In this document: in pieces, positions 52,244 to 55,930 of the stretch | Layout of the letters: every line of letters starts with the position of its first letter | Position numbering within the stretch: position 1 is the stretch's first letter | Made by a program: the position numbers and the translations under genes | Notes under the pieces: model-generated | Told to the model about the DNA's origin: nothing | Database searches by the model: none | The model's input: the letters and a program-made list of their open reading frames with translations, nothing else | Assembly (NCBI GenBank): GCA_963726195.1 | Contig: CAVSBO010000013.1 | Span: 1-64,000, forward strand | DNA: 64,000 nt | Direction of reading: 5' to 3' | DNA from: Candidatus Thorarchaeota archaeon | GTDB lineage: Archaea > Asgardarchaeota > Thorarchaeia > Thorarchaeales > Thorarchaeaceae

Positions 52244-52341
52244 GTCCTTCGTGATGGCTCAAGTCACCCTTCAGCCACTATCCGATGTGCTCGACAAGAG
52301 AATCACTGAGCAGAGTCGTAGTTCCGAATGTCTGGAGCGGC

Positions 52342-52632
52342 TTAGCCTGTGCGCTTTATGATATGGTATCCGAACTTGGTCTTGACAGGTTCGGTAGTCA
52401 TTTGGCCAGGACCCAAGGCGAATGCAGCTCGCTCAAATTCCGGGACCATCTTGCCCCTCTCAAACCAGCCGAGGTCTCCGCCTTTGCTCTTCGAGGGACA
52501 AGTGCTGAACTGCTTTGCCATGTCCGCGAAGCTTGCACCTTCGTTTATCTTCCTGATGATTTCCAAAGCTTGGCTCTGTTTCTCTACCAAGATGTGGCTA
52601 GCTTTCACTTTTCCTGCAGTGCTCTTGCTCAC
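52342..52632 (-). CDS. Parvulin-type peptidyl-prolyl isomerase
   Basis: [35 protein letters not shown]; SD GAGGTGA at 52645-52639. Confidence 0.95.
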
Positions 52633-52645
52633 GAGTATTCACCTC

Positions 52646-52711
52646 GCCGTTCATTGTAGAATGGACAAATCTAGACATAAGTCCTTTGTCCTCTCAGGAA
52701 CGGCACTGAGA
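52646..52711 (-). ncRNA. Putative omegaRNA 3' scaffold (H-type pseudoknot plus hairpin) overlapping the tnpB-like 3' end
   Basis: TCTCAG/CTGAGA stem; loop GCCGTTC pairs with GAACGGC; nested GGACAAA/TTTGTCC hairpin. Confidence 0.5.
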
Positions 52712-54814
52712 TTGCCGGAGTGAATTATGTTACGTGCCGCATTTATGTCTGCATGAATGTGCAAACCGCAATGTGGACAGTAGAAGTATTCCCCACCCTT
52801 CTTCTCAGTCATGGATTCTTTGCCATGGACTCGGAGCCCTCTCTCTTTACACACATGGCAGGTCTGAGAGGTCCATGCGGGGTTTACTGTCCACACGCTA
52901 TGCGGCGAATGACCAAGTGCCTGCCGCATGTACCTGATTCTGTCAATGGTCTGTCCCCACATGTTTGCGGTGAGAGCCCATGAAAGACCTTTGTACCCAC
53001 TCGGGGCTTCGTCAGCTCCTCAGATCCTCAAGGTAGAGCGTTTTGACGTTGTGCTCTTCGCAGAACCAAACAGTGTGTGAGGCGACAACCCGAGAGACCT
53101 CGCGGTCGAGACGACGGACCTTGTGCCAAAGAGCATCTAGGTTCCTTTCCTTCTTGAGGAGGGACGATGGATGCGACTGCCCCGGCCTCTTTGTCTCCCA
53201 GTTATTCATTTTGTGTTTGACTTCTCCTTGGAGGAATGAGGCTTGCCTTCTAAGGCGTTGCCTCTTACTCAAGAGAGGCTCCATTCTTACCAGCTGATCA
53301 GAGTATGTTTGGTCTTGTAGAACCGATAAAGCGACAGAGACCCTGAGCCCTCTGTCTGCCCCCGCAAGCGAATCGTATGTTTTGTTCTCAAGTCTCGGGA
53401 GGGCTTTCGTGTCGGGTGCGTGGAATGGTATCTGGAGTGTCACTCTGTGCCCCCGAATGAGAAGCTTGGGGGGAGCAGACCTACGGAGCTTCTTCAACTG
53501 TGAGACTTCTTTCTTAAGTTCCACGAGCTTCTCGGACTCTGAATCGCCTTTGCGCCTGATGTGCAGCTCGTGCGCCTTGTGCTGAAATTGGATGGTATTC
53601 ATGAGCTGCTCGTGCATATCTCGAAAGACGCAAGCTCTAAACTCAAGTCTCTCTGCTCTGTAGGGCAGATTTGAAGCCCTTGCCTGGTCCGCTTTGACAG
53701 TGTCCCCACGCGATGCCTGTGGAAGCCAGTTCAGAAAGCGAAATGTCAACGTTCGACAATCGCGTGTGGAATCGTCGATCCTCGTCCCGGCCATGCCACG
53801 AGGGAGCTTGATATGCAAAAGGACTTCGTTGTTCTTTTCGGTGTCTGATTCGAACCAGTAGCCTTGCCCGGTACTGTTCTCAGTAGAAGCCGAATAGTCG
53901 AGACTCGGGCTCTTGAAGCGTGGCGTAGTAGACTTGTATCCGTTCTTAGACCAAGAGTCGACCTTGTTGATGATAAGCGCCCGAATAGCATCTTTCTTAG
54001 GAGAAGGCTTGCTGAGGCCTCGTCTGACTCTCAACCTTTGCCCTACTCTTGTTCCCATTGGTTGTTCTAATTCAGAAATCACAACTTGGTCAAGTGCGCT
54101 TCTGAGTTGTCGGAGGACCGAGAGTGCATAATGATAGCCTGCGCCATTCTTTCGGACTAGTTCGCAACTATCTCGGACCTTGCGGATCAATCTTGCCACG
54201 ATCCATTTCTCACTCAGCAGCTGAATAGCATCCTCTTGTGAATCACAGAGAAGGCGAATAGCAGACGTGGTCAGCTGCCTTCTGATGTATTGGGAGAGAA
54301 TGATGCGGCCGGCCTCTTCCAACGCGTCCCTGTGGAGACGCTCAAATATGAGATTCTGGAATTCCTTATTTCCTTGGTAGCAGAGGTCGGTTTCCTTGCG
54401 AAGTAGGTTGTATGCTTCTCCCCTGTACAGTGAAAGTTCGTGTCCGATTTGTTCAGCACGTTGAGGACTGGTGTAGACTCTCTCAAGAATCAGGTTGACG
54501 ACATCCACGTATCGTTTCATGTATGATTCAAGGGTGTTGAGGTCCACAGTACCGACTTTGTTTCCCGCGACTTTCGTCAGAAGTGAGAGCCGATGTAGAG
54601 ACCGGCGGCTGTGCTTCTTCGAGAACGAGGGGTTTGGGCAGGAGCCAGACCCTTTGCGTATTACGACTCGATCTCGAGAATTGAGAATGAATGATTCAGT
54701 CAGAAAACTCCGGGTCGCATGCTCAGCGACTGATGACTCATTTATGAAGTTGTCATCAATCGTCTCCTGCTTTGTAGGCAGCCTGTGATGACACTGGGTT
54801 GTTTCTGTTGCCAC
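52651..54814 (-). CDS. tnpB: Large (~720 aa) TnpB/Cas12-like RuvC nuclease (+1 frameshift ~53013)
   Basis: RuvC-I GADRG, RuvC-II LEDL, VNPAWTSQTCHVC...CPHC Zn finger, RuvC-III HADINAARNI. Confidence 0.85.
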
Positions 54815-54836
54815 ATGCCAGCACTCTCTAAGAGTC

Positions 54837-54850
54837 TATGCTCGAGCATA
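54837..54850. promoter_or_regulatory. Perfect 14-bp palindrome TATGCTCGAGCATA in the tnpB/RHH divergent region
   Basis: Self-complementary; lies within an imperfect hairpin 54831-54857. Confidence 0.4.
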
Positions 54851-55024
54851 TATCTCCGTAAGTTATACAGACGTGCTGGGAACCTGCCATTAGACTATCT
54901 TTTCGACACCTACGACATGTAAAACAGTGACTGTGGACAGAATTGAGCGCATAATACGCAGATGAGCACCAGCGAATGACACCGGTTCTTTAGGACCTGA
55001 GCTTCCTTTGTTGTTCGGTGCAGA

Positions 55025-55261
55025 ATGAGAGTAGTCACGATATGCTTGCCAGAGTCCTATGTTGAAGGCATGGACGCTTTGATAAAGAAGGACATGTACC
55101 CAAGCCGATCAGAGGTCATTCGCATGGCCATAAGAGACATGTTGGTGGCAGAACTCTGGAAGGAGGAAAGGCCATCAGGTTTGCGTCCTATGCTAGGACG
55201 GGGCGAGCGGCCATCTGCAGTTCCCTTAGAGCGAGTATCTCCTATCGGGCAGTATAGGTAG
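55025..55261 (+). CDS. Ribbon-helix-helix (CopG/CdrS-like) regulator
   Basis: MRVVTICLPE...YPSRSEVIRMAIRDML. Confidence 0.9.
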   Translation: MRVVTICLPESYVEGMDALIKKDMYPSRSEVIRMAIRDMLVAELWKEERPSGLRPMLGRGERPSAVPLERVSPIGQYR

Positions 55262-55339
55262 TCTGTACGACTCAATTAGCTTTTTCTTGGGAGCTTTCGT
55301 TCACTATTACCTGATATCCAAAGGCAGAGGAATGCGGAT

Positions 55340-55930
55340 ATGGTGCGCAAGATATTCGGACGCGGCAAGAAGGATACCGAAGAGGAAAAAGAGAAGTCAG
55401 TAGATGAGAAACTAGGTTCTCGGGAACTCGAAGAAACTTACATTCCGCCTCCTAGTGAGACTCACATCGAAGCCACTCCGACTGAGACTGAGGAATCATT
55501 GCCTGAGGCGAAGCAGTCTGAGCGAGGCGGAACCGTACCCTACCACAGTTCGTTGCCGGATCGTCTCAAATACTTCTTTGACGATACTTCTGCTGTCAAA
55601 GGAATAGAAAGCACGGACGCGTTCACGATCGGGTTCTTGGCCATGGGTGACAGATTCAAGGTCGAGAAGGAGTCCATGGGTCCGATTAAAGTGGATTCCG
55701 GAATGACGCACGACGAGGATGCATTCATACGGGTTTCCAATGATGCGGTCGCCGACCTCCTGTCTGCTGCCACGTTCAAAGAGTTCTCGGATGTCTACAT
55801 GCGTTACTACAGGAATGCGGGACCGGGCAAGTTCGTGAAAATCGAGCTTCGTGAGGACATCAGTACACTGAACAAGCGCGGTTTCGCCAGAGTTCCACTC
55901 CTCAAACTCCTGATTGGAACTGCGCGCTAG
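55340..55930 (+). CDS. Hypothetical protein (acidic N-terminus, possibly SCP2-like C-terminal domain)
   Basis: 196-aa ORF with SD-like GAGG upstream. Confidence 0.7.
   Translation: MVRKIFGRGKKDTEEEKEKSVDEKLGSRELEETYIPPPSETHIEATPTETEESLPEAKQSERGGTVPYHSSLPDRLKYFFDDTSAVKGIESTDAFTIGFLAMGDRFKVEKESMGPIKVDSGMTHDEDAFIRVSNDAVADLLSAATFKEFSDVYMRYYRNAGPGKFVKIELREDISTLNKRGFARVPLLKLLIGTAR

Follow-up and report, generated by a model that had tools for sequence, protein, structure and literature searches.

An omegaRNA-like pseudoknot at the right end of a probably defunct IS607-type tnpB element upstream of a Thorarchaeota parvulin gene

We propose that the motif at 52646-52711 of the window (that is, of the whole 64,000-nucleotide stretch of Candidatus Thorarchaeota archaeon DNA that was analysed) is the 3' part of an omegaRNA scaffold and at once the right end of a tnpB element of the IS607 family, of which this copy now appears defunct. 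Comparison of the many copies of the motif makes this reading very probable. A pseudoknot adjacent to the guide is supported by covariation among these copies and, together with a likely (A)GGG TAM, it provides a guide-proximal omegaRNA structure for an uncharacterised clade of large archaeal TnpB proteins.

The motif and the genes around it

The first-pass annotation of this DNA had described two hairpins and a pairing between the loop of the upstream hairpin and the 3' end of the motif. When the minus strand is read directly, all of these are present where it had placed them. The features of the locus, with the approximate extent of the scaffold, are as follows.

52342..52632, minus strand: parvulin gene (PpiC-type PPIase, 96 aa; PF00639, E 4.2e-25)
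52627..52646, minus strand: predicted guide CGAGGUGAAUACUCGUGAGC, assigned by position and drawn at 20 nt for illustration
52647..52760 (approximate), minus strand: putative omegaRNA scaffold, overlapping the final ~35 codons of tnpB
52652-52646, minus strand: 3' strand of the pseudoknot, GAACGG plus C
Between H2 and the pseudoknot 3' strand, minus strand: 10-nt linker ATTCTACAAT
52691-52685 with 52669-52663, minus strand: hairpin H2, GGACAAA with TTTGTCC, 15-nt loop
52711-52706 with 52697-52692 (52692..52711), minus strand: hairpin S1, TCTCAG with CTGAGA, read from the sequence
52698..52704, minus strand: pseudoknot 5' strand GCCGUUC, held in the 8-nt loop of S1 (t plus GCCGTTC)
52725..52730 with 52680-52675, minus strand: candidate second long-range helix, ACAUAA with UUAUGU of the H2 loop
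52651..54814, minus strand: tnpB-like gene of ~720 codons, with a +1 frame break near 53013-53019
54815..54950, minus strand: left-junction zone, with no TTGGACA repeats and no GGG
55025..55261, plus strand: host ribbon-helix-helix (RHH, CopG-like) gene (PF01402, E 5.3e-6)

The GG at 52648-52647 is the final dinucleotide of both the scaffold and the right end, and the tnpB stop codon (TGA, 52653-52651) falls within the motif. With a 6-bp S1, a 1-nt L1, a 6-7-bp S2 and a long L3 containing H2, the geometry is what we take to be that of an ordinary H-type pseudoknot. Rfam covariance models run against 52300-55400 gave no match at E <= 10.

The tnpB-like gene begins with a 600-codon ORF (54814-53012) that stops after ...LEDLRS, and the +1 frame then continues to the TGA at 52653-52651. 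The part in the +1 frame encodes a Cas12f1-like TNB zinc-finger domain (PF07282, E 2.6e-16). The RuvC D/E/D motifs GADRG, LEDL and HADINAARN are present in the gene, as is the CxxC..CxxC finger. Compared with intact paralogues the window gene has one extra base, and the paralogue on contig C16, P0003, is uninterrupted at 708 aa. Programmed frameshifting was rejected since neither a homopolymer nor a slippery run occurs at the site, CUG-AGG-AGC-UGA, and the extra base is not found in the intact paralogues; we read the frameshift as a mutation or an assembly error.

The ~710-aa protein is distant from the characterised TnpBs, falling below the NCBIfam cut-offs and having best PDB matches at E ~0.01. 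By size, this enlarged TnpB stands between the minimal enzymes and Cas12. P0003 has at least 280 homologues, most of them from Thorarchaeota MAGs and many 50-60% identical over their full length. A protein of the relative G012 is 100% identical to one recorded at NCBI for a Candidatus Thorarchaeota MAG, which places the host in this lineage of Asgard archaea. Its matches to PDB sequences cover the C-terminal RuvC/zinc-finger part of Cas12g and TnpB only, and its ~480 N-terminal residues have no sequence match to solved structures. The genome that contains the window has 35 TNB-domain matches, and since most of these come from tnpB genes of the ordinary kind (~400 aa), which are not related to the ~710-aa clade, several TnpB families coexist within it.

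The right end of the element lies 14 nt upstream of the GTG of parvulin, with which the element is co-oriented, and parvulin is present as one copy in the assembly (tblastn). In at least eight relatives the divergent RHH gene is adjacent to parvulin at a distance of 130-200 nt, and the arrangement seen in the congener G002 recurs in G003 and at least seven further genera. This empty arrangement means that the insertion is specific to the lineage of the genome studied here. A three-way alignment of the window, G002 and G003 contains a conserved host block, (T)TGAGGT..(A/G)TG, and since G003 has an ATG at the position of the GTG in the window and G002, the start of parvulin and its SD-like GAGGTGA are fixed. 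Through the insertion, parvulin has been moved ~2.2 kb away from the intergenic region in which relatives have its promoter, and no T run follows the scaffold. Given the separated promoter region, the co-orientation and the lack of a T run, parvulin would most simply be expressed by transcripts that read through from the element or from host signals further upstream. Congeners share conserved blocks in the RHH-parvulin intergenic region, for example GAAAGG-AATACTCTAATA, which may be promoters.

Copies, boundaries and element family

The 62-nt motif was found in 24 copies in the 2.9-Mb assembly using blastn and nhmmer. From a sample of ~150 genomes, a covariance model of S1 and H2 recovered hundreds of copies in 17 of the 26 belonging to the same archaeal family, often at least 32 per genome among the matches listed, and none in the 125 from other families of the phylum. 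Within the assembly, 5 of the 24 copies adjoin the 3' ends of tnpB-like reading frames, which are uninterrupted on C16, broken on C8, C3 and in the window copy, and reduced to a fragment in another case on C13. The other copies are gene-less elements of ~186 nt that keep both ends, a TATA-like box and the entire scaffold. The box is found ~128 nt before the right end, a position from which the scaffold would be ~100 nt long. Two copies in relatives, L103 (G009:C1) and L100 (G010:C120), have internal deletions that join the first part of the recombinase gene directly to the mid-portion or the end of tnpB, and these show how gene-less derivatives originate. Several copies in relatives are situated at contig ends, which implies that the repeat breaks assemblies; for annotation, the element explains a high-copy repeat of ~186 nt that both breaks Thorarchaeota assemblies and interrupts genes. 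Some gene-less copies lie close together, as a tandem pair 269 nt apart (C8:162252-162585) and an inverted pair ~460 nt apart (C3:337131-337716).

All copies finish in ...AAUGAACGG with similarity ending directly after, and in each copy the end of similarity is found immediately past ...AATGAACGG. The sharp loss of conservation that had been predicted after GAACGGC is thus seen, falling abruptly after GAACGG. In the congener G002 the alignment to the window covers 56768-54951 and 52645-51300, with 159 nt between the two blocks compared with ~2.3 kb in the window. Since all copies share one terminus and the G002 alignment resumes at 52645, the right end can be placed within 1-2 nt, at 52647/52646. 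The earlier placement of the right end at 52646 therefore agrees with the empty site in the congener, but the scaffold likely ends at 52647, so that the guide begins one base earlier than had been supposed. Of 71 copies, 63 have T and 8 have C as the first base of the flank. If IS607 is taken as the model, the scaffold would end at the GG (52647) and the guide would start at C52646; with C52646 as the first flank base, the seventh pair of the pseudoknot would use the first nucleotide of the guide. The proposal of an omegaRNA-type scaffold that overlaps the 3' end of tnpB, with a pseudoknot directly before a variable flank, is borne out by these comparisons.

The predicted guide includes the SD-like GAGGTGA (52645-52639) and the parvulin GTG (52632-52630), and conservation in G002 and G003 confirms that the adjoining 20 nt correspond to the SD-like sequence and start of this gene. 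The further suggestion that the guide was derived from a host translation-initiation region reduces to a consequence of insertion position alone, as the flank differs in each copy. Elsewhere in the genome, each candidate target for the guide has at least 2 mismatches over 16 nt, and GGG precedes none of them. A nuclease-dead repressor of the TldR type was rejected since the RuvC residues are kept, the guide is the adjoining flank and no second genomic match exists at <=1 mismatch. Exact-match scans of genome and metagenome collections with the junction 23-mer and the guide 25-mer returned no match. An exact 18-mer in IMG/VR was discarded as a viral target, being inside a coding region, preceded by AAATT and not GGG, and near the number expected by chance (~1-2 by our own estimate).

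By its sequence features the element is of IS607 type and not IS605, a point that the first-pass annotation had left open. In full-length relatives a MerR-HTH plus Resolvase ORF is found directly behind the left end, which these relatives have in common with the gene-less copies and which reads GGG|T..CAACAGCTGC..TTGGACA..CTTGGACA. The recombinase frames of the copies in G012, G009 and G010 are fragments, truncated or fused through internal deletions. An intact MerR-HTH serine recombinase of 208 aa is encoded in the genome that contains the window (C3:855049-855675), behind a canonical left end; the window copy itself has no recombinase gene. At C3:854960-863118 (L104, L014) this left end and intact recombinase sit inside a DNA methyltransferase gene. 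Following the same strand downstream for 5.3 kb, one reaches the next right end that matches, which comes with a frameshifted tnpB; the region is thus either a single ~8-kb element that carries cargo or a pair of partial elements.

At 35 independent left junctions, G is found at positions -3 to -1 in 35, 35 and 31 cases, respectively, and A at -4 in 22, which points to (A)GGG as the likely TAM. The right ends all read ACGG followed by T or C. The pyrimidine (Y) at left-end +1 and flank +1 is probably a site preference of the recombinase. An occupied/empty pair for one gene-less copy, AAAAAGGG|TTCTGCAC, shows scarless insertion with no target-site duplication. In IS607, TnpA requires a GG core and prefers TGGG, the TnpB TAM is TGGG, and the omegaRNA scaffold terminates in ...UCGG, with the element-proximal TCGG escaping self-cleavage (10.1101/2023.11.20.567912). 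IS200/IS605 was dropped as an assignment because the genome, which is 88.9% complete, has no PF01797 (Y1) match, the flank motif is GGG and the recombinase is of the serine type. The consensus H2 loop and 3' arm contain a tandem TGTCCAA(C)TT repeat that is mirrored as two TTGGACA repeats in the left ends. These repeats are probably also binding sites of the recombinase at the DNA level, in which case the same stretch would carry both DNA and RNA functions. Since the repeats and the terminal GG are probably kept for DNA recombination, their conservation cannot all be counted as evidence for an RNA.

The window copy looks like a relic of a system that no longer works. Its tnpB is frameshifted, it has no recognisable left end, its right-end repeats are degenerate (TGTCTAG and TGTCCAT) and its left junction has no GGG. 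Solid homology to G002 stops at 54951, and the best candidate for the left junction is CTGG|CATG at 54820-54814. An HMM of the left end matches four related elements and nothing in the window copy, and 54960-54818 aligned to the 5' regions of six related elements at chance level (15-126 of 200 shuffles scoring equally high). A similarity to the promoter region of L101/L102 was discarded, such local alignments being at chance level. All RNA helices of the window copy are intact, as expected after recent decay, and the intact paralogue and recombinase could in principle still act on other copies. Just upstream of the tnpB GTG, in what may be host or element DNA, the minus strand of 54818-54879 carries CCAGCAC (54879-54873) and GTGCTGG (54824-54818), between which lie a perfect palindrome, TATGCTCGAGCATA (54850-54837), and an ATATAT box.

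Covariation and folding of the scaffold

Two alignments were used, one of 70 copies made by MAFFT (A1) and one of 88 copies made with the covariance model of S1 and H2 (A4). Since this model does not include the pseudoknot, it cannot have favoured pseudoknot pairing in A4. For S1, 90.5% of the cells in A4 are paired and 5 of 6 pairs have double-sided changes (for example CG/UA 55:19 and GC/UA 23:21), and for H2 the corresponding figures are 94.3% and 3 of 6 pairs. The pseudoknot has 96.4% of its cells paired and compensatory changes in 4 of 7 pairs, compared with 0.7 +/- 0.7 compensated pairs expected from shuffles, of which 0 of 500 reach 4. Across the whole structure, 13 pairs have double-sided changes in the 88 copies compared with 4.9 +/- 1.1 in shuffles. 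The first-pass annotation had named covariation at the 3' ends of homologous genes as its check, and the stems and the pseudoknot both show it.

When partners were slid out of register, 22-52% of cells were paired over the three helices compared with 90-96% for the real pairing. For the pseudoknot these controls gave 22-42%, with a +3 control at 76% that covers only 4 of the 7 pairs. Compensated pseudoknot variants include GCCGCU/GAGCGG, GUCGUU/GAACGA, UCUGUU/AACAG, CCGUUU/AAACGG and CCGUUG/CAACGG, the last of these in three genomes. The compensatory events are few in absolute terms, amounting to 6 cells across 4 pairs, and uncompensated C.A mismatches occur in 9 cells at one pair and 5 at another. 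The central CCG/CGG is near-invariant, so 3 of the 7 pairs show almost no variation and are uninformative either way.

A nested minimum free energy fold, which cannot draw both helices, chooses GCCGUU/AACGG in the window RNA as well as in a gene-less copy, while RNAalifold draws S1 and H2 only. The folding z-scores against shuffles are -4.2 for the RNA of a gene-less (MITE) copy and -1.8 for the window RNA. The candidate second helix was followed by eye in A1, where ACAYR ~20 nt upstream of S1 and YRUGU in the H2 loop change in step between subfamilies, with GACACA/UGUGUC, ACAUCA/UGAUGU, GACAGG/CCUGUC and GACAU/AUGUC as equivalents of the ACAUAA/UUAUGU pairing. For another candidate helix, AGGAGU/ACUCCU, the gene-less copies have the equivalents CAAAGC/GCUUUG and CAGAG/CUCUG; the tnpB-linked copies have no counterpart, and MAFFT shifts the register of this helix by one column.

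Proposed function, alternatives and known systems

We propose that the element inserted into the divergent RHH-parvulin intergenic region, 14 nt upstream of the parvulin GTG. Its RNA would fold into S1, then H2, then the H-type pseudoknot, formed between the S1 loop GCCGUU[C/U] and GAACGG, the six bases that end the scaffold, and the DNA past the GG core, roughly the first 16-20 nt of the flank, would become the guide. In a copy that is active, TnpB bound to this RNA would cleave the allele without the element at (A)GGG followed by the flank, leading to retention or homing. Cleavage of the element-free allele to promote retention or homing is established for IS605 and IS607 elements (PMC10055086, 10.1101/2023.11.20.567912). 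For the Thorarchaeota element we infer expression of the RNA, its binding by TnpB and the use of the TAM. Targeting of the empty allele, which the first-pass annotation had offered as one outcome, is thus the standard model, but is doubtful for the window copy given its frameshift, the lack of a recognisable left end and a junction of CTGG and not NGGG. In the only empty alleles found, those of G002 and G003, the target is not preceded by GGG and several of its positions do not match the guide. Since the system looks defunct in this copy, the guide would cover the SD and start of parvulin by accident of position, as a by-product of the insertion site.

It is improbable that the motif is a transposon end at the DNA level only, bound by the serine recombinase and giving rise to no functional RNA. 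The tandem TGTCCAA(C)TT repeat with its mirrored TTGGACA pair in the left ends, and the terminal GG with a Y in the flank, which fit an IS607 crossover site, are what such an end would contain. However, a site bound as duplex predicts no compensation across 50 nt or within S1 and H2, whereas all three helices show it; the left end has no counterpart of S1 or of the GCCGUU loop, and the gene-less copies retain a TATA-like box ~100 nt upstream together with the whole scaffold. Most likely the DNA-end and RNA roles coexist. A chance fold, or a host 5'-UTR element or terminator unrelated to mobile DNA, can be given hardly any weight. The window RNA taken alone folds only modestly better than its shuffles (z = -1.8), but the motif covaries, is repeated hundreds of times at unrelated loci, is absent upstream of parvulin in all relatives examined and is not followed by a T run.

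A further explanation is that the relic has been co-opted as a leader of the parvulin mRNA, with the TnpB of a paralogue binding or processing the read-through transcript and so controlling translation. The setting is suggestive, as the element is co-oriented with the single-copy parvulin gene, its right end is 14 nt from the GTG, parvulin has been cut off from the 130-200-nt intergenic region with the promoter in relatives, and the helices are intact despite the damage to tnpB and the DNA repeats. TnpB is also reported to process its own mRNA into omegaRNA (PMC10278001). Nevertheless, we regard co-option as very unlikely. A copy that decayed recently and has a single frameshift would be expected to keep its helices, and the insertion is private to its own genome, the junction 23-mer being absent from genome and metagenome collections and all relatives examined being empty; this means that there is no sign of selection for the insertion. 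In its specific form, the intact TnpB paralogue would bind the leader RNA and bury the guide segment with the SD and start, or processing would free a trimmed mRNA, and this we consider highly unlikely. If it were true, a transposon RNP would set parvulin translation at the RNA level.

Read as the omegaRNA scaffold and right end of an IS607-family element, the motif has its closest counterpart in CboIStron, the Clostridium botulinum IS607 element (10.1101/2023.11.20.567912). Both combine a MerR-HTH serine recombinase (here in relatives) with tnpB, insert without a scar beside a GG core and have gene-less derivatives. The left flank is G-rich in both, (A)GGG here and TGGG there, the scaffold has CGG before the guide (ACGG and UCGG, respectively), and the NCGG proximal to the right end differs from the TAM at -3. 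Unlike CboIStron, the present element is found in an archaeal host, has no group I intron and encodes a TnpB of ~710 aa instead of ~400, with ~480 aa before RuvC-I, and it is known from sequence alone. IS607 ends have been described as having no inverted repeats, whereas the ends here carry inverted tandem TTGGACA repeats.

Guide RNAs of TnpB and Cas12 conserve a pseudoknot beside the guide (PMC10097598). In the ISDra2 omegaRNA, seen by cryo-EM (PMC10097598), the RNA likewise overlaps the 3' end of tnpB, the guide is flanking DNA, and the last scaffold bases before the guide pair with an upstream segment. There, positions -103 to -105, close to the 5' terminus of a scaffold of 116 nt, are the partners of -5 to -3, whereas here -6 to -1 pair with a hairpin loop ~50 nt upstream (H-type), giving 6-7 bp compared with 3-5. 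ISDra2 also belongs to another family, IS200/IS605, has a Y1 transposase and uses a T-rich TAM.

Gene-less PATE-like elements encode omegaRNAs that act in trans (PMC10055086). The ~186-nt copies resemble them in that both ends, the complete scaffold and a promoter-like box are retained, and since they are gene-less they need TnpB and TnpA in trans. The window copy differs from PATE-like elements in that it retains a tnpB reading frame and has no recognisable left end. The element is an archaeal large-TnpB branch of the IS607-type elements, with self-promoted gene-less derivatives, and as a kind of element it is already known. The genome contains dozens of natural guides besides intact copies of both the protein and the recombinase, and so provides a ready-made system in which an enlarged TnpB can be tested.
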